64,000 nucleotides of DNA from contig JANWJF010000001.1 in the NCBI GenBank assembly GCA_025449535.1, forward strand, positions 219,406 to 283,405, in the 5' to 3' direction. The position numbers and the translations under genes were made by a program. This document shows, piece by piece, positions 10,778-56,393 of this stretch. This DNA comes from Candidatus Saccharimonadia bacterium (GTDB lineage: Bacteria; Patescibacteriota; SICC01). Below the pieces are notes generated by a model. The model saw only the letters and a list, made by a program, of their open reading frames with translations. It did no database searches and was not told where the DNA came from. Numbering within the stretch: position 1 is the stretch's first letter; each line of letters begins with the position of its first letter.

Positions 10778-10879
10778 AAAACCCCCATACTAAGGGAAGT
10801 TCTGTTGGATAGGATCTTGTAACTACGATTTCGCTGTTCACCCGAACGGCGATTTATTTTCTTAACCCAAGGATCCAAC

Positions 10880-12172: not shown

Positions 12173-12322
12173 TCACGCTAGCCTCGTTGTCCGAACCTTT
12201 GCGTATCTTGCGCCTAAGGTTCGTCGATGGTAGTGTAAAAAACTCAGAACTAAGCGATATTTATCGATTCTTTCTGAGTGTCCATTGTTCCGTTCTTTCA
12301 AACGACAGAGAGGGTGAGGTGT

Positions 12323-12928
12323 ATGCCGGGAATCGTGGTCATCGGAATTGGTGGCCCACCGGGGCTGGGAATCGACCTGACGGGTCTGCTGAGTCCTGAG
12401 GGACTCATCGAGCACGCTCGGGAGCACGTGCAGGAATGCCGCGACGGCAACTACAGCGAAGCAGCGTGCCTCGTCGGCACGGTGCGCGGGGAGCTGCTCT
12501 CCCTGGAGGAACTCGGGATTACCGAGGAGGAGCTGGAAGAGTTCCGCCAGAAAGGCGTCGTCGAACCGGCCAAGCGATACGTCGAGGAGTGCCGGGACGG
12601 CGACTACGAGCACCTCGGGTCACTCATCGACTGGCTGTCAATCAAGACGGTCACCGAGGAGGAGCTCGGGATTACCGAGGAGGAGCTGAACGGGTTCATC
12701 AAGCAGGAGAACCTGCGGACCGCCAAGGACATCATCGCGGAATGCCGTGAGGATGACTACAGGCAGCTAGGTCCGATACTCGCGGCGATCTCCAACGGCA
12801 TGTTCACGGTCGAGGAGCTCGAGACGAGCAAGCAAGAGCTCGGGGAATTCATGATCAAGCGGAGGCTTGGGTCGACGCAATCGAGCAACGGCTCGGGCAC
12901 GCATGAGCGGACCAGTCAAAGCTCCTGA
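12323..12928 (+). CDS. Repeat protein: three roughly 50-aa repeats (ECRDGxY...EELGITEEEL...F)
   Basis: ATG after GAGGGTGAGG. Repeats are REHVQECRDGNY..EELGITEEELEEF, KRYVEECRDGDY..EELGITEEELNGF, KDIIAECREDDY..EELETSKQELGEF. Confidence 0.5.
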   Translation: MPGIVVIGIGGPPGLGIDLTGLLSPEGLIEHAREHVQECRDGNYSEAACLVGTVRGELLSLEELGITEEELEEFRQKGVVEPAKRYVEECRDGDYEHLGSLIDWLSIKTVTEEELGITEEELNGFIKQENLRTAKDIIAECREDDYRQLGPILAAISNGMFTVEELETSKQELGEFMIKRRLGSTQSSNGSGTHERTSQSS

Positions 12929-39812: not shown

Positions 39813-41324
39813 CTACGCCGGCTGTCCCGCCAGTCGTTCCCGATACTGCAGCGCTTCCGCTACGTGCGTCTCCGAGACGCCGACCTCGCCGGCCAGGTCG
39901 GCGATCGTCCGCGCCACCCGCAGGACCCGGTGGCATCCTCGTACCGAAAGGTGCCAGCGGTCGACCGCCCGCTCCAGAAGCGACCCGGTCTCGCTAGAGA
40001 CCGCGGCATGGCGTTCCAGTTCCGCCAAGGTCATGCCGGCGTTGACACGGTCCGGGCCGAGTCGGTCCGCCTGCCGCTGCCGGGCGGCGGCCACGCGCTC
40101 CCGGACACGGGCCGTTGATTCGCCCTCCGGTAACGACAGTTCACCGTAGGCCAGCCGGGGCACGACCGCCAGGATGTCGAACCGGTCCCGGATCGGGCCC
40201 GACAGTCGCTGCTGGTACCGGGACACCGTCAACGGACTGCAGCTGCAGGGGCGGGCCGGGTCTCCCGCGAAACCACAGGGACACGGGTTCTGGCTGCCGA
40301 CCAACATGCATCCGGTCGGAAACTCCAACGTCTCGCGGACCCGGCTGATCCGGACGTACCCGTCCTCGAGCGGAGCCCGGAGTCCCTCTAATACGGATGG
40401 CGGGAACTGCGGCAGTTCGTCGAGGAACAGTACGCCGCGATGCGCCAAGGTCACCTCGCCCGGCCGCGGGTGGCTGCCGCCGCCGATCAGTCCGGCCAGC
40501 GAGACGGAGTGGTGCGGGCTGCGGAACGGCCGGCTGCGCACCAGCGGCTGGTCCGGCGGCAGGATGCCCGCCACGCTGTGGGCCGCCGTGATCTCCAGTA
40601 GCTCCTCGCGCGAGGGAGGAGGCAAGAGCCCCGGCAGCGCCTTGGCCAATAGGCTCTTGCCGGTGCCCGGCGGTCCGGTCAGGAGCAGGTTGTGGCCGCC
40701 CGCTGCCGCTACCTCCAACGCCCGCTTGGCGTGCGCCTGGCCGCGGATCTCCGAGAGGTCCGTGGCCGGGGTCGGCGAGCCTTCCAACTTCACGGGCAGT
40801 TCCGGTCGGCGGAATCGCTCCCCGCGGAGATGTGCCGCCAGCTCGGTGACGGACGTCATGCCGAACACCGTGAGCCCTGCCGCCATCGCGGCCTCGGCCG
40901 CGTTCCCCCGCGGGACCACCAGGGCCCGTACCCCGTGCGCCGCCGCGCCGAGGGCCACCGGCAGCGTCCCGTGTACCGGCTGGAGCGTGCCGTCCAACGA
41001 GAGTTCCCCGAGGAAGAGCGTCGCCTCGTCGGGCGGCGGGACCTGTTCCGTGGCCGCCAGGATCCCCACAGCGATCGGCAGGTCAAGTCCGGAGCCGGCT
41101 TTCCGCGTGGCGGCAGGCGCCAGGTTGACCGTGATCCGCCGGGCCGGCAGTTCCCCGCCCGCCTGACGGATCGCCGCCCGGACCCGCTCGCGGCTCTCGT
41201 CCACCGCCTTGTCCGGCAGGCCGACGATGGAGAGTCCCGGCAGGCCGGAGGATACCTCGACCTCCACGGTCACCGGTTGCATCGCCAGGCCCGACAGCGT
41301 CGCCGTCCGTACCCGTGCCACCAT
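39813..41324 (-). CDS. comM: Mg-chelatase-like AAA+ ATPase YifB/ComM family
   Basis: Walker A LLLTGPPGTGKS, Walker B, ChlI-like core, C-terminal HTH. Convergent with pyrF with a 1-nt gap. Confidence 0.85.
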   Translation of the reverse strand: MVARVRTATLSGLAMQPVTVEVEVSSGLPGLSIVGLPDKAVDESRERVRAAIRQAGGELPARRITVNLAPAATRKAGSGLDLPIAVGILAATEQVPPPDEATLFLGELSLDGTLQPVHGTLPVALGAAAHGVRALVVPRGNAAEAAMAAGLTVFGMTSVTELAAHLRGERFRRPELPVKLEGSPTPATDLSEIRGQAHAKRALEVAAAGGHNLLLTGPPGTGKSLLAKALPGLLPPPSREELLEITAAHSVAGILPPDQPLVRSRPFRSPHHSVSLAGLIGGGSHPRPGEVTLAHRGVLFLDELPQFPPSVLEGLRAPLEDGYVRISRVRETLEFPTGCMLVGSQNPCPCGFAGDPARPCSCSPLTVSRYQQRLSGPIRDRFDILAVVPRLAYGELSLPEGESTARVRERVAAARQRQADRLGPDRVNAGMTLAELERHAAVSSETGSLLERAVDRWHLSVRGCHRVLRVARTIADLAGEVGVSETHVAEALQYRERLAGQPA

Positions 41325-41418
41325 GTCACTATGGTAGCTTGTTTAAAAGCAATAGTCGACACGAGGCCTCCCGCGGGCCGACTACCGACCACGGACCATG
41401 GGCTGTTAAACTGAAGCC

Positions 41419-41796
41419 GTGAGCAAACGAAAGCGCAAGCGGAAGCCGTCACGGCGCCAGCGCCAGGCCGGGATCGACCGGCCGGCCAAGCGTCCGGCGG
41501 ACCCGGCGGCGGTCACTCCGGAGCCGGCCACGGATCCGGAGGTTCCGGAGACCGTCGCGGAAACACCGACTCCCGGCACGCCCGATCCCGCTCCCACGGT
41601 CACCGCGGTTTTCCGCCCGTCGACCAAGTCGGAAGCGGTCGTCTCGCTCGAGCAGGAGTACATCGGCCACGATCTGCGGCGCCTCGGCGTCCTGATAGCG
41701 GCCTTGGCGACGGCGCTGACCGGAGTCGCCGTGCTCCAAGCCCAGACGAATCTGATCGGCGAACTCGGCGCTTGGCTGTTCACGTGGTGGAATTAA
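41419..41796 (+). CDS. Small membrane protein with a Lys/Arg-rich N-terminus (125 aa)
   Basis: MSKRKRKRKPSRRQRQ...; C-terminal TM LGVLIAALATALTGVAVL. Confidence 0.45.
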   Translation: MSKRKRKRKPSRRQRQAGIDRPAKRPADPAAVTPEPATDPEVPETVAETPTPGTPDPAPTVTAVFRPSTKSEAVVSLEQEYIGHDLRRLGVLIAALATALTGVAVLQAQTNLIGELGAWLFTWWN

Positions 41797-41878
41797 TCTT
41801 GTCCGTGCGTAAGAATCCCGCTATCCTGGGCACGAATGACCGAAACGACCGTCCCAGCGTGATTCGAAAGGTGCGACC

Positions 41879-42460
41879 ATAGCTTCCAAAAAGTATCGGC
41901 TCGGCGAGGCCATCCGCGCGCCTAAGCTTCGGGTAGTCGACGGTGAGAATAACCAGCTCGGCCTCCTCTCGCGAGAGGAGGCGCTCGAGAAGGCCCGGGC
42001 CGCCAACCTGGACCTGGTCGAGGTCGCGCCGCAGGCCGAACCGCCCGTCGCCCGGATCATGGACTTCGGGAAGTTCCAGTACGAGCAGAAGAAGCAGGCC
42101 AAGCAGCAGAAAAAGCAACGGGCCGGGCTGGTGAAGGAGATCCGGCTCTCGATGAAGATCGGCGCCCACGACCTGGAGTACCGGCTGAAGAAGGCCAGGG
42201 GATTCCTCGAGGAAGGCCAGAAGGTGAAGTTCAACCTGATGATGAAGGGCCGCGAGAACGCGAACCCCAAGGCGGCCATGCAGCGCGTGAAGGATATCGT
42301 CGCCGAGCACATTCCGGAAGCGGAGGCCGAAGCGGACCCCGTCCGGGCCGGCCGCAGCATCTCGATGGTGGTCGCGCCTCCGAAGGGCGGCTTCAAGGAC
42401 CCTGTACCGGAAACGGACGAATCCGGCGCGGATTCGAAGGACGTCCCCACGGACGAATAG
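41879..42460 (+). CDS. infC: Translation initiation factor IF-3 with a non-AUG (ATA) start
   Basis: Continuous frame (I)ASKKYRLGEAIRAPKLRVVDGENNQLGLLSREEALEKARAANLDLVEVAPQAEPPVARIMDFGKF... An in-frame TGA lies 12 codons upstream of the ATA, with no ATG between. AAAGG lies 8 nt upstream of the ATA. The track's version starts at the internal MDFGKF. Confidence 0.8.
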   Translation: MASKKYRLGEAIRAPKLRVVDGENNQLGLLSREEALEKARAANLDLVEVAPQAEPPVARIMDFGKFQYEQKKQAKQQKKQRAGLVKEIRLSMKIGAHDLEYRLKKARGFLEEGQKVKFNLMMKGRENANPKAAMQRVKDIVAEHIPEAEAEADPVRAGRSISMVVAPPKGGFKDPVPETDESGADSKDVPTDE

Positions 42461-42462
42461 AC

Positions 42463-42494
42463 CCATAGCCCGCAGATGTGCCTACGGGCTATGG
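42463..42494. terminator. Stable 10-bp hairpin between convergent infC and the 42510..42929 gene (terminator without a U-tract)
   Basis: CCATAGCCCG-(12 nt)-CGGGCTATGG perfect inverted repeat immediately after the infC stop. Confidence 0.45.
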
Positions 42495-42509
42495 ATTGCT
42501 GGCTTCGGA

Positions 42510-42929
42510 CTACTTGCTCTTCAGTTCGTCGATCTTCTTCACGACCTCGGCGTCATCCTGCATGTTCTCCCAAAACAGGACTGACGTCTTGGCAATGGTC
42601 ATCTTCTGTTCGGGCCGGGTCAGGTCGTTCTGGTCGATCCGGGCCAGCGTCAGTCGGGACTGGGCGTCCGGCGCCGGACTTGGGTTGGCCACGTTGCCCT
42701 GCGACTGCACCTGGTAAGCGTCCGTGAGCGTGACGTAGTCACCGCCCAAGCCGGACAGCTTGCCGAAGTACACCTGGCCGTTGGTCAGGAACACCGCCTG
42801 GTACTTGCCGTAATCGGGCTGTTCCTGGACCTGCTCGATTACCATCTTGCCAATGAACAGCACGACGACCACCACGGCGAGGCCGATCAGCCATTGCCGC
42901 GCGTTGATTACTTTGAGTCGTTGAAACAT
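42510..42929 (-). CDS. Small N-terminally anchored protein (paralog of 55965..56393)
   Basis: TM WLIGLAVVVVVLFIG. Shared YQAVxLxNGxxYFGxLSGLG..YVTL.DAY motif with 55965..56393. Confidence 0.55.
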   Translation of the reverse strand: MFQRLKVINARQWLIGLAVVVVVLFIGKMVIEQVQEQPDYGKYQAVFLTNGQVYFGKLSGLGGDYVTLTDAYQVQSQGNVANPSPAPDAQSRLTLARIDQNDLTRPEQKMTIAKTSVLFWENMQDDAEVVKKIDELKSK

Positions 42930-43075
42930 ATGGATTCCTTTTTTGTTTTATGCCTGCTTCTGCCTTGTATGGTACCCCAAAGTCAGGCTGTTTCCAGCCT
43001 GACTGGTCTTCCTGGTGATCTCCGCTGAAGTGGCCCGGCCTTGCGCCAAGGCACGGTCGGCAAGACCGGGCCGCT

Positions 43076-43972
43076 TCAGGGTTGATCGGATACGTTCGGG
43101 ATCGCCACACCGTTGATCGACGGCGCGATGTTCCGGGAGCTGCGCAGGACGGCGGCCGTCCCGCCGAACGGCGAGAGGTACCGCCACTTGATCCCTACCG
43201 CTGAGTTGGCAGGGACCGTGAACGTACAGTTGGAGTAGAGCGGCGTGTAGGTCCGCGCGTAGCTCAGCGCCTCGCCGCCGTTACAGTCCTTGCCGTTGAC
43301 GCTCAGCGTCACGGACATGCCGGTGCCTTCCGTGTTCCGGCCGGTTAGCTTGCCGCTCAGGACCAGCGTCTCCTTGGTCGGGCCGGTCCGGTGGGTACAT
43401 TCGGTACCCGGCACGTCCGCGAACGAACGTGACGTGGTGGTGGCGTCCGGGCCGGTCTCCGCCAGGCAGCTCACCGAGCGCGCTTGGCCGGTGTCGCCAC
43501 CGGACGGGGCCGGGTAGTCGGTCTCCTCGACCGACGTCGGCCCTGCGGACGGGACGGCCTTCGGCTTGCCGTCCTCCTGGCCGAGCAGTCCTTTGCCCAG
43601 GAAGTACGCCCCCGTGACCACAGCCAGGATCAGGATGGCGATGACGCCCCACTTGATCGTCCGCAACGTGCCGTGGAGCGAGTCCGACGGATCCGGCGCG
43701 GGAGCCGCCGCCTGCGGGCGCGGGTCGGGCGGAGGGGGCGGCGGAGGCGCGGATTCGTGCTGCGGCACGGGCGCGGGATGCGGAGCGGTATGCTCCGGCG
43801 CGGGCTTACGCACCCGGTGCGGTTCCGGCTTGGGCTCCGGATTCGGGTCGGGCACGTGGTCGTAGACCGGCTGCCCGTCCGGACCCAGCGGCGCGGCCAG
43901 CGCCTCGCCGGGCTTCGAGACACGGCGGTCCTTATCCGGACGTTCCCCGTTCTGGTGGCGGACGTCGTTCAC
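43076..43972 (-). CDS. Membrane-anchored protein: Pro-rich cytoplasmic N-terminus, single TM, extracellular domain related to the C-terminal domain of the giant protein
   Basis: PPPPPPPDPRP; TM IKWGVIAILILAVVTGAYFL. C-terminal ...NCTFTVPANSAVGIKWRYL resembles the giant protein's ...VPCSVELPADKEVTIKWQIRTD. Confidence 0.6.
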   Translation of the reverse strand: MNDVRHQNGERPDKDRRVSKPGEALAAPLGPDGQPVYDHVPDPNPEPKPEPHRVRKPAPEHTAPHPAPVPQHESAPPPPPPPDPRPQAAAPAPDPSDSLHGTLRTIKWGVIAILILAVVTGAYFLGKGLLGQEDGKPKAVPSAGPTSVEETDYPAPSGGDTGQARSVSCLAETGPDATTTSRSFADVPGTECTHRTGPTKETLVLSGKLTGRNTEGTGMSVTLSVNGKDCNGGEALSYARTYTPLYSNCTFTVPANSAVGIKWRYLSPFGGTAAVLRSSRNIAPSINGVAIPNVSDQP

Positions 43973-44053
43973 GCCACTCTCCCTTCGACGGAAATCCGCG
44001 CAGCCCGAACCAGCCGTGCTCCTTGTGTGCCTTGCGAACTCATGGCGTCTCCC

Positions 44054-47000
44054 TTACCTCGCGCTGGCGAACCCGTTAACGTATGGCGTCGTCGTGGCCG
44101 ACTTCCGGTAGACGAAGGCCGTGCCTCCCTCGTCCGTCCGGATCTGCCACTTGATGGTCACTTCCTTGTCTGCCGGCAGCTCGACGCTGCACGGCACCGA
44201 GATGGTACTCCAGTCTACGCTCGACTCGAACGATTCGCCGCAGACCTGCTCCTCGCCGTCCACTTCGACGACGATTCGCACGTTCACCGGCGCTTCCGGA
44301 TCCGTGGTCTTGGCCATCAGGCGGGCGTTCAGCAGCAGCACCTCGGCCGACTTGCCGGAACGGTAGCGATAGCCCTCCCCGATGTCGCTGAACTCGCGCT
44401 TGTCGACTTCCAGGTCGTCGCCCTGCTCCAGCTTGTAGTCGACCCGGCCCGGCTTGAACTTGGCCGAGGTCACGGCGCCATCCGCCAGCTCGGCGGTCTT
44501 CACGCTGCCGGCCTGCAGGGTGACCCCGCCTTCGCCCAGGCTCACGGATTGGGCCGAGGTGCCCTGCACCGCCGCGGCCACGCCGGTGGCGGAGGCCTGG
44601 TTCACGGCCGGGATCGCCAGGTCGGGCGTCGGGTACGGGCCGGCATCCTGGGAGATCCGCCGCACGGTGCCTTCGTCGGCGCCGACGGAAGCCCGCGACT
44701 GCTTCAGCTGGTCAATCTCACCTTGCAGACCCTTGAGCCGTTCGTCCACCTGGGTAGCGCGCTCCTTGTCCGCAGCGATCGCGTCGTCGCGTAGGTCATC
44801 GATCCGGGTGTTCACCTTGTCGATCTCGCCGGCATCGGCACCCGGCTGCACGGCCTCGCCCGAGGACGCCGGGCGTCCTTCCAGGTCCTCGACCTTGCTC
44901 TCCAGGTCGGCCACGCGGCCACCGGCCTCACCGGCCTTCTTGGACGCTTCATCCGCAGACCGTTTGGCTTCGCCGGCAGCGGTCTCCGCGCCGGAAATCC
45001 GGCCGGCCAGCTCCTCGACCTGCTTGCCCAAGTCGCTGACGGACTTCTTCAGGTTCTCGACCTGCTCGGCGACGGTCTTGTCCACGTCCTCGACCAGTTT
45101 GTCGACGTCCTCGGTCAGCCGCGAGATCGCGTCGGTGTTGGCCTTGCCCTTCTTGGCGGCTTCTTCCTCGACGCGTTTGATGCCCTTCCGAACCTCGTCT
45201 ACTGCCGGTTCGACGTTGGTCTTGTCGAACGCGCCGAAGAAGACGGACACCTTCTTATGCTTGACCTTCTTGCCGTCCTGGTCGACGGTCTCTTCGACCT
45301 TGCCCCAGTCGACCGGTTCGGCGACCTTGGCAATGACGTGGCTGACCGGATACGTGCCCGGATCCATCTGGGCATGACCGGCCACGCCGGAGCTGATCAG
45401 GTTATCGCCCGGTCCAAGGTCCTTGCCGGTATCAGTGATCCAGACCTCGCCGTTACCGACGGCCATCACCAGGCTCGGGTTCGAGTTAGATTCCGGCCGG
45501 TTCTTCTTGCCACCCTTTTCCTTCGGGTTCAGGACGGACAGGTACGAACCCATGACCTTCGGGTCGTTGGCCTGCGTGCTCCGCTTGATGCCATAGACGA
45601 CTTCGGCACCCGGCTTGTCGTTCTGGGTATCGTTCGCGCCGGTCTGAGTGACCAGCATGCCGCGGTCGATCGATTCCTTGGCGTCGGCGTAGTGGGAACC
45701 GGTGAAGGCATTATAGCTGACGGTCGTGCCGGAAACGGAGATGGTCCCCTCTTCGGCGCCGTCCTGCTGCAACGAGACGATGGTGCCGTCGGTGCTCTTG
45801 CGATCGAACGTCCCCGCCGTACCGGCGACCGAAGCCACGAAGGCATCGTCGGTCTTGAGCGTGTCGGTCGTCGAGCGGTAGAGGTTGGTGTCACCGGCGG
45901 AACCGAAGGTCAGACCGTCGGTACCTGCAGAGATGCTAACCCGGGTGGCTAGGGTTTGCGCGACCCCCCCTGAAGCTCCCGGTGTCCCGGTCTGGAAGTT
46001 GATCTTTCCGCCAGCAGCGTTGTTACCAGTGTTCTTACCACCGGCCAGGTTCAATGCAGCTCCGGCACCATTACTAATGGAGGTCGATGATCCAGTTGCG
46101 TTCAGGGTGACGGCGGCCGCCGAGTTGTTGGTGACACCGTTACCAATGTAGGCGTCTTGGATGCTCGTGCTGTTACTTCCGATTACCAACTGGTTCGTAG
46201 CCGTAGCAGTGGCTGAGCGACCGATGACGATGCTGTTACTGAGGTTGCTGAGAGCGGCGTTCGCACCGATGGCGATGGAGTTGTTTGGTCCACTGCCCGA
46301 CTGGGTGGCTGAGTCACCAATGATGACACTGCTGTTTCCGGTGGCGGTGGCGCTGCGACCAATGGCCACGCTATTTTGGCCGGTGCTTGCATTGGCCGCG
46401 GCCCCACTACCGACTGCAACACTAGCGCTGTTACCGCTAGTGTTGTTGGCTACTGCTGAGTCTCCAATGGCAACTGATAATGCGCCAGAGATCGCCGAAG
46501 CACCTAGGGCTGTACCGTTGTTGGCGGTGATCGTGGCGCTTTTACCGACCGCCAAGGCGCTCGTAAACGTACTGGTAGTGGAGCTCGCTCCGAAGTGTTC
46601 GCTGTTGCTGCCGCTGCCCGGGCTGGAGATGGTGCCCTGAATCGTCAAGCTGTCATCAGACTTCAAGGTGTCGGCCGCACTGCGATACAGGTTGGTGTCT
46701 CCCCCGATGGTCAGGCCAACATCAGCGGTGGTATTGCTGAGAGCTAGGGTAGTCTTGCCACCATTGTTGTTGATAGTCTGGGAATTCGTGAATACATTGG
46801 CCGCACCCAAGAGCGCAACATTAGCGCTCAATCGAGCGTCGGGGACGAAACCGCTGGTCAGCTGGGTGGCGTTGAGGTTAGTAAGGTTGCTGCCATTCAG
46901 AGCGCCCAGCGTTCCCGTCAGGTTAGCGGCATCGAGGTTGGTTAGGGCACTTCCGTTCAAGGCTGGGAGGTTCCCTGACCCGTCTAGCTGTACCAGCTTA

Positions 47001-50000
47001 TTCGCTGCGTTGAAGGTGTTACCCTGGACCGTGACGTTGCTAGAGAGTCGAGCATCAGCCAAGGTGCCAGTGCTAATGTTCGAGGCGTTCAGGTAGTAAC
47101 TAGCCGCTTGGCTGTTCAGCTGAGAAGCATTTACATTCGACAATTGAGATCCGTCACCAACGAACCCCGATGCCGTGACGTTGTTATCGAAGTAGTAGCC
47201 ACTACCGCCGGTCCCGTCATAGTAGAGACTTCCGCCGACATCTCCGAAGTAAATCACGGCGTCGGACGGGGCCCCGTTCAATGAAAGCGAGAGACTGCCC
47301 GGATCAGCGGCGGCATAGCCGCTCGTACCGACGGCAACTGAGTCATCCGTCCGTAATTCGTCCGCTGCGCTCCGGTAGAGGTTCGCGTCCCCGCCGATGG
47401 TCAGTCCGACGTTTGCAGTGGTATTCGAAAGTTGGAACGTGGTCTTGCCGCCGTTATTGGTGACGCTCTGCGAAGTCGAGAAGGCGTTGTTGATGTTCTT
47501 GAGGGCGACGTTCGAGCTCAGGCGTCCATCAGCCAGCGTACCCGAGCTGATGTTGCTGGCGTTCAGGTTGGTAAGGCTTGCACCAGAGCCTGCCAGGCCA
47601 CTGATCGTGACCGCGCCGGTCGAAGTGTTCACATTGATCAGGTCAGTGCTGTCTGACTTCTGCACTCGGAAAGCGTTGGCCGCGTCAACGCTGTTCTTAA
47701 AAAGGGCATTGCCGCCACTGCCGCTTAGGCTGAAGACGGTGGCTAGGCTATTCACGCTCGTACCGCTGGATCCCGGTTTGGCAATCTGGAAGTTCAGGTC
47801 ACCGCCAACTCCGCTGCCAGTACCCTTACCGCCAGCAAAGGTAAGCGAGGCTCCGGCGGTGTTAGTTGCTCCGGCAGGCACCCCGGTGGCGTTCAGGGTG
47901 AAGCTGACCGGCGCGACGTTAGTAACACCATTGCCGATGTAGGCAGATTGGATGTTGTCGAACGAACTCCCGCCGCCAATCACCAGCTGGTTACCTGCGG
48001 TGGTAGTGGCTTCTCGTCCAATAGCAACGCTTCCGGCAAAAGACGCGTTTGCCTGATACCCGAGAGCGGCCGTGTTATTCGCAGAGACAGACTGTCCGCC
48101 AATTGCTATGCTGCTTCCTGACGAGCTCGCAGAGTTTCCGGCGGCTATACTGTTACCAGAACTAGTAGCAGACACGCCAATGGCGACACCGCCGTTTGCG
48201 TCGGTACTAGTCTGGTTTCCGATGGAAGTACCAGCAGAGCTGGTGTTGTAACCGAGCGCAACCGCTGAGTTTCCGGTAACCGTGGCTCCGTAGCCGACCG
48301 CGGTACCTCGCAGGAATGTGCTAGTAGTCGAACCGGCCCCGAAGCGTTCACTGTTGGCACCACTGCCCGGACTGGAGAGAGTCCCGGCCACGGTCAGGCT
48401 GTCATCGGTCTTGAGCGTATCCGCCGCACTCCGATAGAGGTTGGAATCCCCACCGATCGTCAGGCCGGTGTCAGTGCCTGTGTTGGTGAGTGCCAGGGTG
48501 GTCTTGCCGCCGGCGTTAGTGATGCTCTGGCTGGTCGAGAAGGCGTTGTTGATGTTCTTGAGGGCGACGTTCGAAGACAGACGGGCATCGGCCAAGCTGC
48601 CGCTCGAGATGCTCGAGGCATTCAGGTTGGTCAATGCGCTGCCGTTTAACGCCGGCAGGTTCCCCGAACCATCCAGCTGGACCAGCTTGCTGGCGGCATT
48701 GAAGGTGTTGCCTTGCAAGGTGACGTTACTTGAGAGCCGCGCGTCATCCAATGTCCCGCTTGAGATGTTGCTGGCGTTCAGGTTGGTCAGACTGGCTCCG
48801 GAGCCGGCCAAGCCAGTGATGGTAACCGCACCGGTCGAGGTATTCACGTTGATCAGGTCGGTACTATCGGACTTCTGGACCCGGAAGGCGTTGGCCGCAT
48901 CGGCACTGTTCTTGAAGAGGGCAGCCCCGCCGGTGCCGTTCAGGCTGAAGACGGTGGCGAGTGCATTAGCGGCAGATCCGCTGCCATCAGGCTTAGCAAT
49001 TTGGAAGTTAAGGTCTCCACCAGCTGCGGAGCCAGTACCCTTACCGCCGGCAATCGCGACCGATGCTCCAGCGATATTCGTGCCCGAACCACCGGTACCG
49101 TTCAGGGTGAAGCCGACGGGCGTGGCGTTGGTGACGCCGTTGCCGATGTAGGCAGATTGGATGTGATCCGCCGCGCTGCCGCTGGAGGTGCTACCGCCGA
49201 TTACCAACTGGTTGGCCGCAGTGGTAACAGCTTCCGCGCCCAAAGCGATGCTGCCGCCGAAGTTTCCGACGTTACTGTTGTAACCGATGGCGATGGCGCG
49301 GGTCGAGCTTCCGCCACTGCCGCTCTGGGTCGCACCATACCCGATGGCGATCGTCTGGGTGGCGCTGACGCTGGCGTTGCGGCCAAGGGCAATACTATTG
49401 TCGGCTGCCGCGCTGGCGCTCGCGGAGTTACCAATCGCCACGGCGTGACTGCCGGCAGCGTTTGCCGAAGGGCCAAGTACCGTGACAGAAGCGGCGCTGG
49501 CCGATGCACTGCGCCCAACCACCACGGCGTCAACTGAGGAACCGGAACTGCCGCCACCTGCATTTGCGCCGATGATCACAGCATTACTCGAACGAGCGCC
49601 AGTTTGATATCCAATTGCCGTGGCGCCAGTAGCCTCAGCCAGAGCACCGTTACCGACCGCCAAAGAGTTTCCAAAGCTGCTGGTGCTCGCTCCTGACCCA
49701 AAGCGCTCACTGCCGCTGGCGCTGCCTGGGCTGGTAATCCCATTCTGGAATGTATTCAGAGCAGTGAACGTGTTAGCCGCATTCTTGAGCGCTACGTTCG
49801 AGCTCAGCCGGGCGTCCCCCAACGTGCCGGAGCTGATGTTGCTGGCGTTCAGATCGGTCAGCCCCGATCCGATTCCGGAGATCACGCCCGACGCGCTGAG
49901 GTTAGTTACGTTCACCGCCGTTGACCCCGTCGTATCGACGCTCAGCGGAGCAATGGTTCCGTCCGTGTTCTTGACCGTCAGGGCCACGCTGGAATCCTCG

Positions 50001-51847
50001 GTTGCCCGGAATTGGATCGGCTGGTTGAGTTCGAACTGTTTGAGCGTGGCGTTCCAGTGAAGCACCGCGTTGTGAGATACGGTGCCGAGATAGAAGATCA
50101 GGTCGGCACTTTCGGCATCGGGAGAGACGTTATCGGCATTGACGGTAAAGCTCGAAGCGTCAGTGCCGGCAATCCCGGTCGAGATAGCCTCGATGTTGTT
50201 GGCCGAGATCGTATCGGCATGGACGTTCTGGATGTAGCCGTCCTGGAAGAAGGTGCCAGCCGATCCAAGCGCTTTGGTCTGGTCGGTCGGCACGATGTCG
50301 GTATCAACCTTCGCGTTGAAGCTAACCGTGTCGGCGTCATTGGCCCCGAGGGTGACGTTGCCGCCAAAGACGTTGTCGTTCGTAAAGGTGTTCGCGGCGT
50401 CTTTGAACGGGACGTTCGAAGAAAGCCGGACGTCGGCCAGGATTCCGGAAGCGACGTTCGAGGCGTCGAGGTTCGTGACCTGCGATCCGTCAGCGACCAG
50501 GCCGTTGACGTTGACCGCTCCAGTCAGGGTATTCACGTTGATCAGATCGGTGCCTACGGCGTCTTTCACTTGGAAGGCACTGAATCCGTCGAAAGTATTC
50601 TGGAAGACCGGTGACCCGGTGAACGTCTGGGAGGCGTTGAGCAACGCGACGTTGCCGGTCAGCGCCGAATCGGACACCTTGCCGGCGCTGGAAATGGTGT
50701 CGAGCTTGTCGTCGGAGATGCCCCCGAGCAGCTCGGCGTTCTCGATCGTCTGGCCGAGCTTGGAGACGGCGTCCGACAGCCGGCCGTCGGCCAGCGTCCC
50801 GCTGGCGATGTTGCCGGCGTCGAGGTTCGTGACCTGGGAACCGTCGGCGGCCAGGCCGCTCACACTGACGGCGCCGGTCAGGGTGTCGACGTTAATCAGG
50901 TCGGTGCCGTTCGACTGCTGGACGCGGAACGCGCCGTCGCCGTCGACGGCCGGCCGGAAGACGGGGGTGCCGCTAAAGGTCTGGGAGGCGTTGAGCAGCG
51001 CGACGTTGCCGGTCAGCCGGCTCTCGGCCAGCGTCCCGCTGGCGATGTTGCCGGCGTCGAGACCGGTCAGGCCGGACCCTTCACCGGAAACGCTGGAGCC
51101 GCGGATGCTTCCGGTCACGTAGAGGTTGCCCTCCTCCGGGGTCCCGTCCGACTCCTGCAGGCTGACGCAGCTGCCATGGGGACAGACCGGCACGTCCGCC
51201 GTCTGTCCTCGAGCTCCCTGGGTCCCGGGCTGGCCCGGTTGCCCGGCCGGCCCGTCGGTGACGCTGATTGACCGTCCGGCCGTGCCAGCCTTCTGGGTCA
51301 CGCTGATGGCGAACGTGGTCTTGCCTTCGACCCGGGCACCTTCGGACAACCGGCCGACCAGTTGGTATTTCCCATTCTTGGCAAGCTGGTCGCCGATGAG
51401 TACGCCGACCACCCTGCCCTCGCTGTTCGTGTTCATCGTGAACTGGCTGGTCTTGCCGTCGGGACGGACCAGCGCGAAGTCCACCGGCGTGTCCTTGGCC
51501 GGGGTACCATCGTCCTTCTGGATCGGGTTGGTGACGAACGGCAGGTTCTGCGCCAGGGAGCCGCTGGAGATGTAGATCTCGATCGACTTGGAGGCCACGC
51601 CGGGCTGCGGGTACGGGGTCGGTGAACCGTCCGGGGCAGGATAGGCGATGCCGGTCTGCGGCAGTTCGTCAGGGATCTCCGAAGGATTCACGAGCTCGGC
51701 GATCTGCTGGCTTCCCGCCACCGCGCCGGTGGTCACCATCGCGGAGGCCGCGAGGATCGTCGCTACCCGGAGCTTGGGATCGTCCGGAAGGTGGCGCACT
51801 ATCGCCCGGACTCCGGCTGTGATTTTCGTTTTGATTGTTTCGAGCAT
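44054..51847 (-). CDS. Giant (about 2600 aa) secreted beta-helical/tandem-repeat surface protein with a collagen-like triplet segment and a coiled-coil region
   Basis: Signal-like N-terminus (MLETIKTK...RVATILAASAMVTTGAVAGS). GPAGQPGQPGTQGARGQ triplets. At least a dozen repeats of ...LNASNISSGTLADARLSSNVALKN.... Lys/Glu-rich coiled coil near the C-terminus. Start set at 51847, because the track's upstream Met lies inside the promoter. Confidence 0.8.
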   Translation of the reverse strand: MLETIKTKITAGVRAIVRHLPDDPKLRVATILAASAMVTTGAVAGSQQIAELVNPSEIPDELPQTGIAYPAPDGSPTPYPQPGVASKSIEIYISSGSLAQNLPFVTNPIQKDDGTPAKDTPVDFALVRPDGKTSQFTMNTNSEGRVVGVLIGDQLAKNGKYQLVGRLSEGARVEGKTTFAISVTQKAGTAGRSISVTDGPAGQPGQPGTQGARGQTADVPVCPHGSCVSLQESDGTPEEGNLYVTGSIRGSSVSGEGSGLTGLDAGNIASGTLAESRLTGNVALLNASQTFSGTPVFRPAVDGDGAFRVQQSNGTDLINVDTLTGAVSVSGLAADGSQVTNLDAGNIASGTLADGRLSDAVSKLGQTIENAELLGGISDDKLDTISSAGKVSDSALTGNVALLNASQTFTGSPVFQNTFDGFSAFQVKDAVGTDLINVNTLTGAVNVNGLVADGSQVTNLDASNVASGILADVRLSSNVPFKDAANTFTNDNVFGGNVTLGANDADTVSFNAKVDTDIVPTDQTKALGSAGTFFQDGYIQNVHADTISANNIEAISTGIAGTDASSFTVNADNVSPDAESADLIFYLGTVSHNAVLHWNATLKQFELNQPIQFRATEDSSVALTVKNTDGTIAPLSVDTTGSTAVNVTNLSASGVISGIGSGLTDLNASNISSGTLGDARLSSNVALKNAANTFTALNTFQNGITSPGSASGSERFGSGASTSSFGNSLAVGNGALAEATGATAIGYQTGARSSNAVIIGANAGGGSSGSSVDAVVVGRSASASAASVTVLGPSANAAGSHAVAIGNSASASAAADNSIALGRNASVSATQTIAIGYGATQSGSGGSSTRAIAIGYNSNVGNFGGSIALGAEAVTTAANQLVIGGSTSSGSAADHIQSAYIGNGVTNATPVGFTLNGTGGSGTNIAGASVAIAGGKGTGSAAGGDLNFQIAKPDGSGSAANALATVFSLNGTGGAALFKNSADAANAFRVQKSDSTDLINVNTSTGAVTITGLAGSGASLTNLNASNISSGTLDDARLSSNVTLQGNTFNAASKLVQLDGSGNLPALNGSALTNLNASSISSGSLADARLSSNVALKNINNAFSTSQSITNAGGKTTLALTNTGTDTGLTIGGDSNLYRSAADTLKTDDSLTVAGTLSSPGSGANSERFGAGSTTSTFLRGTAVGYGATVTGNSAVALGYNTSSAGTSIGNQTSTDANGGVAIGVSATSSGNSIAAGNSASSSGSSIAIGGQSVSANNTAALGYQANASFAGSVAIGREATTTAGNQLVIGGGSSFDNIQSAYIGNGVTNVAPVSFTLNATGVPAGATNTAGASLTFAGGKGTGSGVGGDLNFQIAKPGSSGTSVNSLATVFSLSGSGGNALFKNSVDAANAFRVQKSDSTDLINVNTSTGAVTISGLAGSGASLTNLNASNISSGTLADGRLSSNVALKNINNAFSTSQSVTNNGGKTTFQLSNTTANVGLTIGGDANLYRSAADELRTDDSVAVGTSGYAAADPGSLSLSLNGAPSDAVIYFGDVGGSLYYDGTGGSGYYFDNNVTASGFVGDGSQLSNVNASQLNSQAASYYLNASNISTGTLADARLSSNVTVQGNTFNAANKLVQLDGSGNLPALNGSALTNLDAANLTGTLGALNGSNLTNLNATQLTSGFVPDARLSANVALLGAANVFTNSQTINNNGGKTTLALSNTTADVGLTIGGDTNLYRSAADTLKSDDSLTIQGTISSPGSGSNSEHFGASSTTSTFTSALAVGKSATITANNGTALGASAISGALSVAIGDSAVANNTSGNSASVAVGSGAAANASTGQNSVAIGRSATATGNSSVIIGDSATQSGSGPNNSIAIGANAALSNLSNSIVIGRSATATATNQLVIGSNSTSIQDAYIGNGVTNNSAAAVTLNATGSSTSISNGAGAALNLAGGKNTGNNAAGGKINFQTGTPGASGGVAQTLATRVSISAGTDGLTFGSAGDTNLYRSTTDTLKTDDAFVASVAGTAGTFDRKSTDGTIVSLQQDGAEEGTISVSGTTVSYNAFTGSHYADAKESIDRGMLVTQTGANDTQNDKPGAEVVYGIKRSTQANDPKVMGSYLSVLNPKEKGGKKNRPESNSNPSLVMAVGNGEVWITDTGKDLGPGDNLISSGVAGHAQMDPGTYPVSHVIAKVAEPVDWGKVEETVDQDGKKVKHKKVSVFFGAFDKTNVEPAVDEVRKGIKRVEEEAAKKGKANTDAISRLTEDVDKLVEDVDKTVAEQVENLKKSVSDLGKQVEELAGRISGAETAAGEAKRSADEASKKAGEAGGRVADLESKVEDLEGRPASSGEAVQPGADAGEIDKVNTRIDDLRDDAIAADKERATQVDERLKGLQGEIDQLKQSRASVGADEGTVRRISQDAGPYPTPDLAIPAVNQASATGVAAAVQGTSAQSVSLGEGGVTLQAGSVKTAELADGAVTSAKFKPGRVDYKLEQGDDLEVDKREFSDIGEGYRYRSGKSAEVLLLNARLMAKTTDPEAPVNVRIVVEVDGEEQVCGESFESSVDWSTISVPCSVELPADKEVTIKWQIRTDEGGTAFVYRKSATTTPYVNGFASAR
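46650..49250. repeat. Long (about 1.0-1.2 kb period) near-identical tandem DNA repeats inside the giant gene
   Basis: Antisense ORFs at 47397.. and 48441.. share near-identical stretches (LVRLAPEPA.P..VTAPVEVFTLIRSVLSDF.TRKALAAS.LFLKRA.PP.P.RLKTVA), which implies near-identical nucleotide blocks. Confidence 0.5.
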
Positions 51848-51891
51848 TATGCTGCGGTTTTTCTTCTCGCTCGCTTTCCGAAAATTAACCA

Positions 51892-51920
51892 ATAGTACCA
51901 AAAATTTGCGCAAATGTCAA
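51892..51920 (-). promoter_or_regulatory. Consensus sigma70-like promoter for the giant gene with a palindromic spacer
   Basis: Minus strand TTGACA-N17-TACTAT. The spacer contains the perfect 10-bp palindrome TTTGCGCAAA. Sits about 45 nt upstream of the ATG at 51847. Confidence 0.5.
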
Positions 51921-52087
51921 GGTCGAAAGGGACGATTGAATAATCCATGTGTTCCCTTTGGGGGAATTACTCCGAGCACTATTTCCGAGCCAGTAGCGCC
52001 CGATCGAAATTCCGGCTTCGTTCGAACAAGAATCACGGACCCTCGACTATCGACTACCGACCCGCAAGCCTGTAATCTGGTTCTCGT

Positions 52088-52285
52088 ATGCCGAAAATGA
52101 AGACCCATTCCGGTACCGCGAAGCGGATCAAGACGACCGGCGGCGGCAAGCTGAAACGGCGCCGCGCCTACGTCTCGCACCTGCTCGAGCACAAGTCCGT
52201 CGCCCGGAAGCGCGCCAAGCATGGCGTCGACGACCTGGCCAAGGCGGATGTCCGCCGCGCCCGTAAGCTGCTGGGAGAAGGCTAA
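52088..52285 (+). CDS. rpmI: 50S ribosomal protein L35
   Basis: MPKMKTHSGTAKRIKTTGGGKLKRRRA. Confidence 0.9.
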   Translation: MPKMKTHSGTAKRIKTTGGGKLKRRRAYVSHLLEHKSVARKRAKHGVDDLAKADVRRARKLLGEG

Positions 52286-52287
52286 CC

Positions 52288-52686
52288 ATGACCCGCGTGA
52301 AACGGGGTGTGACCGCCCACCGCCGCCACAAGCGTGTCCTGCGCCAGACCAAGGGGTACCGGGGCCTGCGGCGCCATTCGATCAAGAAGGCCCGCGAGGC
52401 GCTGCTCAAGGCCTGGAGCCATGCCTACCGCGACCGCCGCACGCGTAAGCGCGACTTCCGTCGCCTCTGGATCCAGCGGATCAACGCCGGCGCACGCCAG
52501 CACGGCCTCAGCTACTCACGGTTCATGGCCGGCGCCAAGGCGGCCGGCATCGAGCTGAATCGGAAGATGCTCGCCGACATCGCGTACAACGACCCGCAGG
52601 CGTTCGCGGCGATCGCCAAGCAGGCCAAGGAAGGCCTCAAGAAGGCCCCCGCCAAGGACGCGGACAAAAAGACCGCGGCTAAGTAG
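52288..52686 (+). CDS. rplT: 50S ribosomal protein L20
   Basis: MTRVKRGVTAHRRHKRVLRQTKGYRG... Confidence 0.9.
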   Translation: MTRVKRGVTAHRRHKRVLRQTKGYRGLRRHSIKKAREALLKAWSHAYRDRRTRKRDFRRLWIQRINAGARQHGLSYSRFMAGAKAAGIELNRKMLADIAYNDPQAFAAIAKQAKEGLKKAPAKDADKKTAAK

Positions 52687-52749
52687 CTTCCGCGCCCACC
52701 GAGGCTTCGCCTGGGCATGAAAACGCGGTACATTAGGATTTGTTGACTA

Positions 52750-52821
52750 GGCCCCATCGTCTAGCGGCTAGGACGCCAGGTTCTCATCCTGGAAACCGGA
52801 GTTCGATTCTCCGTGGGGTCA
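52750..52821 (+). tRNA. tRNA-Glu (CTC)
   Basis: GGCCCCATCGTCTAGCGGCTAGGACGCCAGGTTCTCATCCTGG...GGAGTTCGATTCTCCGTGGGGTCA folds as a cloverleaf with anticodon loop TTCTCAT. Confidence 0.75.
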
Positions 52822-52949
52822 CACTGTGAAGCGGCTCGGCCTTGTGCCGGGACGGTTCACATTGGTTCCATGATCGAGAGGCGGGTCCGAAGATCCGATC
52901 ATATTGATTTTGGTTGAAAAATATCCTTTACTATGGTACTTTTACTTAA

Positions 52950-52997
52950 TTTCTTTAAAGCAAAAAGTATGACCCTCTTTAAAGCAAAAAGTATGAC
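52950..52997. repeat. Perfect 2 x 24-bp direct repeat spanning the start codon of the downstream gene
   Basis: TTTAAAGCAAAAAGTATGACCC occurs twice 24 bp apart, each copy with an in-frame ATG, in a lower-GC stretch downstream of tRNA-Glu. Confidence 0.6.
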
Positions 52998-53841
52998 CCA
53001 CCCCGAACGAGGAATACATCCTGAACACTTATCCCCGGAAGAGATGCGACAAGCACTCGTCGAACACGGCTGGGAACAAGTTGCCGAAGACGGCGTTCCG
53101 TTCTTCAAGCGTGAATATCCTCGAGTCAACGAGACGCTAGGTGGCCAGGAGTGGCGCAAGATAGTCATGGGTTTTAGTCATGTAAAGGAGGGTTCCGAAC
53201 TGCCTCCCGGGCAGATGATTAGCATGGCCGGGAACGATACCGAGGCGACCGTTCAAATCGCTGGAGATTCAGAAAACAGGTCCGACCTCACTAAAGCGTT
53301 CTTGCTTGATAGGTACCTACGCAGTCAGGGTTTCGAGGAAATGGATGAGTCATTGCTGACTGACTGGTTAACGCTCAAGGGCGAGCTCGGTGCGCCAGAA
53401 CGGGAAAGCCGGGAGTTCTACGAGCAGGACCCTCGGGCAGCCGAATTGCGGGAACTATGCCTCGAAGCGATCGAGGAGTATCAAAAAGTCATCATTTCTG
53501 AAGGTACCGAAGGTCCGGCAATTGAGGCCCTGCTCGACCTCAACCAACGGATGGAAGAACTAGGCATTAAGCCTGACATGCACGCTGGCAGGAAGGCGGT
53601 AGAGCTCGTTGATCCGGTCAGTGTGGCCGAGTGGGCGGCAGGCCAGCTTCGAAACCTCCTGACCAAAGGCTATGGCTTCTCTGACCGGGTCAGGGCCCTA
53701 CTGCAGGAACACGACCTACTGGGTGGCGAGGGCGACGGTACGATGGCCATAGATACGAAAGCTTCGCCGGAAGCCGGTGACGCTGCTAACTTGGTTCAGA
53801 TACTTGACCGGCTGGCTCAGAAGCTCGGCCGAGACGATTAA
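52993..53841 (+). CDS. Hypothetical protein (about 283 aa) in a lower-GC region after tRNA-Glu
   Basis: ORF starts in either repeat copy (ATG at 52969 or 52993). Acidic helical protein with no recognised motif. Confidence 0.45.
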   Translation: MTHPERGIHPEHLSPEEMRQALVEHGWEQVAEDGVPFFKREYPRVNETLGGQEWRKIVMGFSHVKEGSELPPGQMISMAGNDTEATVQIAGDSENRSDLTKAFLLDRYLRSQGFEEMDESLLTDWLTLKGELGAPERESREFYEQDPRAAELRELCLEAIEEYQKVIISEGTEGPAIEALLDLNQRMEELGIKPDMHAGRKAVELVDPVSVAEWAAGQLRNLLTKGYGFSDRVRALLQEHDLLGGEGDGTMAIDTKASPEAGDAANLVQILDRLAQKLGRDD

Positions 53842-55964: not shown

Positions 55965-56393
55965 TTACTTCTTTTCTTCCTTGTTCTGCTCGTTGATCGC
56001 CTTGGTGACCGGGCTATCCTCGCTCAACTCCTCCCAGACCGCGATCTGCTCAGAATGGATCTTCATCGCGCCGACCGGCTGGTACAGCGCCTTGTCCCGG
56101 GCTACCAGCGACAGCTGCGGGGTCGCCTGCTTGCCATCCTGGCCCTGTCCGGCCGCGTTCTGGATCGTATAGGCGTTGTCCAGCGTCACGTACTTGTTGC
56201 CAAGGCCGCTGAGCTGGCCGTAGAAGGTCGCGCCGTTGTTCAGCGTCACCGCCTGATAACGGTCATTGTCAGGGGTACCGCCACCGTAATCGCCGAATAC
56301 GCCAAACGTGGTCACGCCCGCCAGTACGATCAACGAGACCGCGATCGCCATAATCGCCCCCCGGGTGCTGATGTCCTTTATGTCTTCCGCCAT
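55965..56393 (-). CDS. Small N-terminally anchored protein (paralog of 42510..42929)
   Basis: TM AIMAIAVSLIVLAGVTTF plus the shared YQAV.L.NG..YFG.LSGLG motif. Confidence 0.55.
   Translation of the reverse strand: MAEDIKDISTRGAIMAIAVSLIVLAGVTTFGVFGDYGGGTPDNDRYQAVTLNNGATFYGQLSGLGNKYVTLDNAYTIQNAAGQGQDGKQATPQLSLVARDKALYQPVGAMKIHSEQIAVWEELSEDSPVTKAINEQNKEEKK

Follow-up and report, generated by a model that had tools for sequence, protein, structure and literature searches.

The genes for translation initiation factor IF3 and for two proteins of the ribosome, L35 and L20, stand in E. coli in the order thrS-infC-rpmI-rplT. Here we describe a split of this gene string in a 64,000-nucleotide (nt) stretch of Candidatus Saccharimonadia bacterium (assembly GCA_025449535.1, contig JANWJF010000001.1, positions 219,406 to 283,405), which we call the window. 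The source genome is small and high in GC (64.5%) and belongs to a Saccharibacteria-like member of the candidate phyla radiation (CPR), and its nearest genomes carry the labels 'Patescibacteria group bacterium' and 'Candidatus Saccharibacteria'. In the window, infC encodes an IF3 of 193 amino acids (aa) (41879-42460, + strand; Pfam IF3_N 5e-28, IF3_C 2e-22), rpmI the 65-aa L35 (52088-52285, +; Ribosomal_L35p 4e-19), and rplT the 132-aa L20 (52288-52686, +; Ribosomal_L20 3e-43), followed by a tRNA-Glu(ctc) gene that both ARAGORN and Rfam find (52750-52822, +). As in the classical operon, the three genes are present in the same order and orientation; unlike it, 9.6 kb and three opposite-strand genes part infC from rpmI. 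The infC stop and the rpmI start are 9,627 nt apart, and the classical adjacency and co-direction are interrupted by small139 (139 aa with an N-terminal transmembrane segment; 42510-42929), pro298 (298 aa with a Pro-rich N-terminus and a transmembrane helix; 43076-43972), and a giant gene of 2,597 aa (44054-51847) whose sole Pfam match above cut-off is YadA_head (1e-11), all on the minus strand. This cassette encodes membrane-anchored surface proteins, one of them a 2,597-residue fibre. An earlier note on this DNA, made by a model from the letters alone, had placed the infC end, the rpmI start, and the three intervening genes at exactly these coordinates.

Linkage of infC, rpmI, and rplT is the rule, yet splits have precedent. 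Among the 55 infC-anchored metagenome loci that carry enough sequence, rpmI or rplT lies ≤700 nt from infC in 53, and infC lies ≤700 nt from rplT in 61 of 73 diverse rplT-anchored genomes. Eight of these 73 genomes, from Deinococcus (four), the Alphaproteobacteria (three), and the Polyangiaceae (one), lack infC throughout the 3.8-10 kb of upstream sequence at hand, the shorter stretches being those of three short contigs. Closer to the window, the three genes are contiguous with spacers of roughly 50-120 nt in L006 (IF3 77% identical), L086, L088, L171/L172, and L173/L174. The genes that flank the gap on both sides are collinear with those of the two closest GTDB genomes, L005 and L006, and of L170-L173. 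Since contiguity appears ancestral and the flanking synteny is intact, the sequence comparisons identify the cassette as an insertion. The proposal of the earlier note that a conserved operon junction was invaded thus holds up, with syntenic flanks and with a contiguous arrangement in the sister genome L006 and in many others. Gene content, homologies, synteny, and distribution are direct observations, from which we infer the direction of the event.

The insertion is not confined to the window's species. Among IF3 sequences with usable contigs, the closest four (L165, L166, L167, and L169; 84-86% identity to that of the window) stem from four separate sequencing runs, and each of them shows, right after infC, a small139 homologue in convergent orientation (62-65% identity) and next a pro298 homologue (63-83%). 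L166 and L169 have an additional small coiled-coil gene between these two, and in L165 and L167 the contig runs on into a giant-like gene, entering it at its C-terminus (64-75%). The distance from infC to the small gene is only 3-6 nt in L165-L167. Across the window and the four related species the cassette proteins are 62-83% identical. A single-gene neighbour-joining tree of IF3 (154 columns) places the window and these four sequences in one clade, whose sister group consists of L006, which is contiguous, together with L005/L168. Judged from these identities, the insertion is old and common to a clade, not a recent mobile island from outside.

We observed other occupants of the same junction in more distant relatives. 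L005 and L168 (IF3 73-76%) carry a 193-aa gene of the shikimate kinase family (Pfam SKI 3e-12) between infC and rpmI, on the plus strand with the operon (L005 9187-9768; L168 554-1135). In L170 (IF3 66%) the junction (10607-12786) holds a 387-aa gene together with an opposite-strand gene for a DUF5648 surface protein, a DUF5648 gene converges on infC in L087 (1888-2541), and a HAD-like gene follows infC in L085, whose contig stops before any rpmI. In total, the junction holds at least three unrelated contents within one family-level group in which other members are contiguous. Because the junction genes of the relatives differ from one another, this distribution points to repeated independent insertions and not to one ancestral arrangement. 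The earlier note had held that unrelated genes between infC and rpmI in related genomes would speak for an ancestral arrangement; such genes do occur, but their contents differ and add up to no single ancestral state.

Large genes that share the tail-fibre-like repeats of the giant protein occur elsewhere in the neighbourhood, on the opposite strand one or two genes downstream of rplT, in two relatives with a contiguous operon (L173 4345-8571, -; L171 12236-14809, -). The surroundings of this ribosomal cluster seem to attract fibre genes.

The alternative that the cassette is ancient at the junction, with contiguity in L006, L171, L173, and others arising secondarily by precise deletion and the remaining occupants by replacement, is in our estimate unlikely. 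It would account for an occupied junction in several sub-clades and for the fibre-repeat genes near rplT in L173 and L171. It could also draw on P0042, an IF3 that falls into another IF3 clade, and the pro298 homologue P0177: each is carried by just one Logan contig, of 6,463 nt in both cases, and the two may be neighbours. If the two share one contig, this would suggest a cassette beside infC in a second clade, either as an older insertion with later losses or as a second arrival. On the other side, most outgroups are contiguous, the occupants are unrelated to one another, the spacers of the contiguous loci are short (about 50-70 nt) and bear the same motif upstream of rpmI, and two distant relatives have the giant and pro298 genes together at their obg locus. 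An ancient cassette would also require many precise deletions.

The earlier note had further read the cassette as a recently acquired, horizontally transferred island targeted near the tRNA-Glu gene. The lineage-restricted, accessory type of the gene content and the lack of a full-length homologue of the giant protein would fit such an origin, and the 240-nt spacer between the giant gene and rpmI has a GC content of only 0.479, as the note's mention of a lower-GC region implied. The cassette overall is not foreign in composition, with a GC content of 0.625 versus 0.645 for the window, and its three genes have GC contents at third codon positions (GC3) of 0.85, 0.87, and 0.76, which resemble those of the host genes (about 0.78-0.93 in most of the flanking ones, the 0.76 falling slightly short of this). 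At least four related species carry the cassette as well, at the protein identities given above. A repeat search of the borders revealed no direct or inverted repeat joining 42.46-42.51 kb to 51.85-52.09 kb, and thus neither the target-site duplications that the note had suggested looking for nor flanking inverted repeats; the repeats it did find are internal to the giant gene, at 60-83% DNA identity. Scans against Pfam, NCBIfam, and PHROG found no integrase or other mobility gene among the three cassette genes, and no phage or viral relatives were found in PHROGs, two marginal matches aside, or, for the tip domain, in IMG/VR. The tRNA-Glu gene is a conserved neighbour of rplT and not a border of the cassette: rpmI and rplT stand between the two, and the tRNA gene also follows rplT in the cassette-free L005, L006, L168, and L170. 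The sequence evidence taken together largely refutes a recent tRNA-associated island, and we consider that reading quite improbable.

A truly atypical gene does lie past the tRNA-Glu gene (52933-53841, +), a point in favour of the island reading. It has a GC content of 0.54 and a GC3 of 0.58 versus about 0.8-0.9 elsewhere, has no family match, and lacks a counterpart at the same place in L005 and L006. The DNA tandem repeats that the earlier note had set beside the cassette come down to a single one within this gene, a 24-nt duplication (52952-52999) that repeats 8 codons near the N-terminus of the product. It is this gene, and not the cassette, that looks like recently acquired DNA beside a tRNA, and with its tandem repeat it makes up a variable spot of its own.

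The giant protein has a modular layout. A hydrophobic anchor at aa 27-46 is followed by a beta-sandwich, a collagen-like (G-X-Y) stretch of 17 residues that falls below the Pfam cut-off, tail-fibre-like repeats, and three YadA-head-like modules at about aa 700-1960; YadA_head (PF05658) matches in four stretches (9.9e-12). A domain containing 'SYNAFTGSHY' (about aa 2000-2200) separates these modules from a coiled coil of roughly 190 residues (about aa 2210-2395; nt 44663-45220), backed by coiled-coil-type matches in the family scans, and the protein ends in a TNF/C1q-like tip (aa 2467-2597; nt 44057-44449). No full-length homologue was found among 5.8 billion clustered proteins, where only the short repeats match other very large proteins, at 2-18% coverage. 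Segment scans of aa 1960-2220 gave no match in Pfam, NCBIfam, or PHROGs, and a sequence search of the PDB returned only a weak match to a Hep_Hag structure, 3s6l.

The second protein of the cassette, pro298, carries a related tip. It consists of a variable Pro-rich N-terminal tail, a transmembrane helix (aa 99-129), a short linker, and a TNF/C1q-like domain (aa 165-292; nt 43097-43480). The family of 27 proteins to which it belongs shares the variable Pro-rich tail, the transmembrane helix, and a conserved domain with four cysteines. The C-terminal domain of the giant protein, of about 130 residues, is homologous to that of pro298 (30% identity, E 6e-17; 176 bits in a profile search). When 1.84 billion representatives were searched exhaustively with a profile, this tip domain turned up in only 50 proteins, nearly always at the C-terminus. 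The fold of the tip, predicted with high confidence, is TNF/C1q-like: it scores 13.7 against a Photorhabdus TNF-like lectin, 12.2 against the Bdellovibrio Bd2734 fibre tip, 12.0 against the C-domain of Chlamydia Pgp3, 11.4 against EDA-A1, 10.7 against BclA, 10.4 against the F-ENA tip fibrillum, and 8-10 against phage receptor-binding heads.

The third protein, small139, has no Pfam, NCBIfam, or PHROG match, and it has a paralogue in a conserved 142-aa gene at 55965-56393 (-) of the window (33% identity, E 3e-20). We also noticed that this gene and its counterpart at L005 14532-14957 encode membrane proteins of a family without annotation and lie between an RNase_H_2/PolB-exo-like gene and a Band_7 gene.

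The YadA_head repeats and the fibrous head-and-stalk logic recall the YadA family of trimeric autotransporters. However, Pfam finds no YadA-type membrane-anchor barrel at the C-terminus of the giant protein, which ends in a TNF/C1q-like domain instead, its polarity is reversed, with an N-terminal anchor and a C-terminal distal end, and no outer membrane is expected in this organism. Since the anchor barrel is absent and the polarity reversed, the predicted architecture is not that of a trimeric autotransporter. The reading of the cassette as what is left of a tail-fibre module from a prophage or tailocin, to which we give scant credence, would explain why the tail-fibre-like repeats are common to proteins with Peptidase_S74 domains, why TNF-like tips also occur on phage receptor-binding proteins, and why a distant homologue of the giant protein in L175 contains an S74-like motif. 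In PHROGs, nevertheless, the giant protein has only two matches, which are marginal (E 0.005-0.007) and confined to the coiled-coil region; a scan of the IMG/VR viral collection for the tip domain found no relative, and no other phage genes flank the cassette. N-terminal membrane anchors and a conserved chromosomal context fit cellular surface proteins, and Bdellovibrio cells employ chimeric fibres of this kind.

Repeat genes frequently break assemblies, the giant gene has diverged internal repeats, and the contigs of the relatives end within it, but a chimeric join within repeats is very unlikely, and its probability negligible, because zero-mismatch contigs from several samples span both junctions: the window is identical to contigs of three Joint Genome Institute (JGI) samples and of one NCBI metagenome-assembled genome (GCA_036560925.1; two of the contigs are near-equal in size and possibly come from the same underlying data), three of the four reach from within infC past rplT, one of them being 681 kb long, the giant reading frame is unbroken with internal repeats merely 60-83% identical, and the infC-side junction is reproduced independently in contigs of four related species.

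Both sides of the split appear to have their own expression signals. Upstream of infC, a promoter-like element (TTGTCC, 17 nt, TATCCT; 41799-41827, +) is conserved in an alignment of the window, L165, L005, and L006 and would drive infC. A six-genome alignment reveals the infC Shine-Dalgarno sequence, GAAAGGTG, and a non-canonical ATA start 5 nt after it (41866-41881, +), within a block, CGAAAGGTGCG...ATAGC, that is invariant in all 6 genomes. A non-canonical start codon of infC is the hallmark and basis of IF3 autoregulation. With its ATA start, which follows a strong Shine-Dalgarno sequence, infC keeps this hallmark, as in the classical operon. Between the convergent infC and small139 genes lies a 10-bp G+C-rich hairpin (42462-42494; -21.5 kcal/mol, z = -3.0), which is terminator-like without a U-tract. 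Two strong hairpins stand directly 3′ of the pro298 stop (42981-43072, -; -59.3 kcal/mol, z = -3.84), the second of which is followed by UUUG and is terminator-like. Since they follow pro298, small139 may be transcribed separately from pro298 and the giant gene. A small gene precedes the infC promoter-like element (41419-41796, +), and its product has a very basic N-terminus, a Pro/Thr-rich linker, a C-terminal hydrophobic segment, and no family match; genes of 124-160 aa occur at the same position in L165 and L170-L173.

The 240-nt spacer between the giant gene and rpmI contains two promoter candidates that stand back to back. The giant gene has a sigma-70-like match (TTGACA, 17 nt, TG-TACTAT; 51892-51920, -) with 10/12 consensus positions and an extended -10 TG, 45 nt upstream of the ATG at 51847, which would act as its promoter. 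The putative rpmI promoter (52050-52078, +) consists of TCGACT (52050-52055), a 17-nt spacing, and TAATCT (52073-52078), and ends 9 nt before the ATG. Whether or not an insertion is present, the TAAnCT motif of the window, L005, L168, L006, L086, and L170 ends 7-9 nt before the ATG of rpmI, and 17 nt upstream of this motif stands a T-G-type hexamer of weak conservation. The proposed -35 region is overlapped by two perfect tandem copies of a 7-nt direct repeat, TCGACTA TCGACTA, at 52043-52056. We also considered TGGCTT (42497-42502) as a relic -35 box of a split ancestral rpmI promoter; this was ruled out, as no such relic exists in L165-L167.

Unlike in the classical operon, no L20-leader RNA was detected, and rpmI has neither a Shine-Dalgarno sequence nor a structured leader. 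The B. subtilis infC operon carries an L20 leader (PMC1865079). Rfam yielded no L20-leader match at the gathering score in the whole window or at E <= 5 in 41200-53000, where only tRNAs and chance matches appeared, and the 176-nt region upstream of rpmI folds no more stably than shuffled sequence does (z = +1.5). A lineage-specific L20 operator of an unknown type is possible. Downstream, rplT keeps the classical geometry, with its ATG 2 nt after the rpmI stop and a GAGAAGG-type Shine-Dalgarno sequence within the 3′ end of rpmI (junction TAACCATG), and translational coupling of rpmI and rplT is plausibly retained.

With a hairpin and a convergent gene downstream of infC, and with the intervening 9.3 kb coding on the opposite strand, transcription of rpmI-rplT would have to start within the 240-nt spacer, in agreement with the earlier note. 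That note had also supposed that the insertion disrupted the classical coupling and feedback. That such regulation ever existed in this lineage is not borne out: no L20 leader matches, the region upstream of rpmI is unstructured, and the promoter-like motif without a Shine-Dalgarno sequence is also found in contiguous relatives. As the motif is conserved with and without insertions and is accompanied by neither a Shine-Dalgarno sequence nor a structured leader, rpmI-rplT probably has its own promoter and a leaderless or near-leaderless mRNA throughout the lineage. Such starts are not restricted to rpmI. In 8 of 35 window genes a TAnnnT motif ends 4-11 nt before the start codon (21324(-), 24192(-), 37601(+), 41324(-), 52088(+), 52933(+), 55888(-), and 63646(-)) versus about 1 expected, with a P of about 4e-6, a significance that is overstated because the background is the whole window and not its intergenic DNA. 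None of the 8 has a Shine-Dalgarno-like motif (0/8), which suggests that leaderless mRNAs are widespread in this lineage of Patescibacteria.

The giant and pro298 genes also occur together away from the infC-rpmI junction. In L175 and in a contig of JGI 3300048101, the giant gene is followed by a pro298-like gene and then, in convergent orientation, by a PEGA-domain gene, obg, yceG, ruvX, a Baseplate_J-domain gene, and mreB. The giant protein of JGI 3300048101 has 5,669 residues. That of L175 shares the coiled coil and the tip with the window's protein (32% identity over 499 aa) and differs from it in the middle section, which includes the S74-type motif. These comparisons indicate that the pair is a mosaic module native to the lineage. 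Since distant relatives keep the gene pair beside obg, the module probably reached the infC-rpmI junction by relocation, in the ancestor of the clade that includes the window. As a separate observation, the Baseplate_J-domain gene (643-649 aa; L175 11640-13589 and the JGI 3300048101 contig) sits in the housekeeping string mreB, Baseplate_J, ruvX, yceG, obg, an odd place for a phage-baseplate-like protein.

The function of the module may be approached through known fibre systems. The MAT proteins of Bdellovibrio are surface-displayed trimeric prey-recognition fibres with swappable tips that include TNF-like lectin tips (PMC10769870), and cultivated Saccharibacteria require several adhesins for epibiotic growth (PMC10633639). 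On the strength of these two precedents we propose a host-recognition fibre: the giant protein would assemble into a trimeric fibre on the cell surface, with a distal tip for binding a ligand on a host bacterium, and pro298 would present a related tip near the membrane, the two acting as a long-plus-short adhesin pair. The N-terminal anchor, the coiled coil, and the YadA-like repeats are compatible with homotrimeric surface display. Like the MAT fibres Bd2734 and Bd2439 of Bdellovibrio bacteriovorus (Caulton et al. 2024, PMC10769870), the giant protein has a C-terminal TNF-like tip. Unlike them, it is about three times longer, shares no sequence homology with them (7% identity), is paired with a short membrane-anchored protein that bears a related tip, and would belong to a Patescibacteria cell envelope, with an N-terminal transmembrane anchor and YadA-head-like modules. 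BclA and the F-ENA tip fibrillum of Bacillus likewise combine a stalk with a C1q-like C-terminal domain. Their stalk is collagen-like, whereas that of the giant protein consists mostly of beta-roll repeats and coiled coil, with collagen-like sequence confined to the 17-residue stretch, and there is no spore context. The likeness to MAT and BclA is one of fold and architecture only, at 7-18% identity, and not one of sequence homology.

Taking these lines together, the explanation that we favour as a whole, and regard as fairly probable, is as follows. Three surface-protein genes would have been inserted between infC and rpmI in the ancestor of a small clade of high-GC, Saccharibacteria-like Patescibacteria. 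The core of the insert would be a two-gene module for a giant anchored fibre and a short membrane-anchored protein with the same tip domain, acting as a host-binding pair. It would have arrived by relocation within the genome or within the lineage, joined by the paralogue small139. The split may have been tolerated because rpmI-rplT already had its own expression signals with or without insertions; its leaderless-type promoter would make it independent of infC expression, so that the separation costs little. For its part, infC would retain its own promoter-like element, Shine-Dalgarno sequence, and ATA start and would end in the hairpin. Other genes would have filled the same permissive junction independently in sister lineages.

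In addition to the pair on 6,463-nt contigs described above, several points weigh against this explanation. The rpmI-side junction is visible in the window's species only, the contigs of the relatives stopping within the repeats, and the clade is drawn from a tree of one gene. With the obg locus seen in distant relatives only, the data fit relocation, duplication, or independent acquisition within the lineage alike. The putative rpmI promoter matches 7/12 consensus positions, is not called by an E. coli-type scan, and rests on conservation and position, and the TAnnnT enrichment is inflated by its background. Trimerisation and ligand binding of the giant protein are drawn from analogy only, and the AlphaFold2 model of small139, built from a two-sequence alignment, has a pLDDT of 48.

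A broader version of the favoured explanation can be put forward tentatively, as possible. The infC|rpmI junction would be a lineage-specific permissive site, occupied mostly by surface-protein genes beside an autonomous, leaderless rpmI-rplT. The cassette would be a previously undescribed host-recognition system that combines a trimeric long fibre of ~2,600 aa with a short membrane-proximal partner, both bearing a rare TNF/C1q-like lectin tip, a pair that can be likened to the long and short tail fibres of phages.

The locus offers a clean, datable split in a gene string that ranks among the more conserved ones of bacteria, and it suggests why the split was tolerated. It does not overturn current understanding, as the splitting of operons, mosaic adhesins of giant size, and fibres with TNF-like tips are already known. 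To our knowledge, few adhesins have been described in these obligate epibionts, and no member of the lineage is in culture. The cassette puts forward a candidate system for host attachment, a giant fibre with a short partner, both predicted to carry rare TNF/C1q-like tips. Together with the use of one ribosomal-operon junction again and again within one family, this rare long-plus-short fibre pair is worth following.

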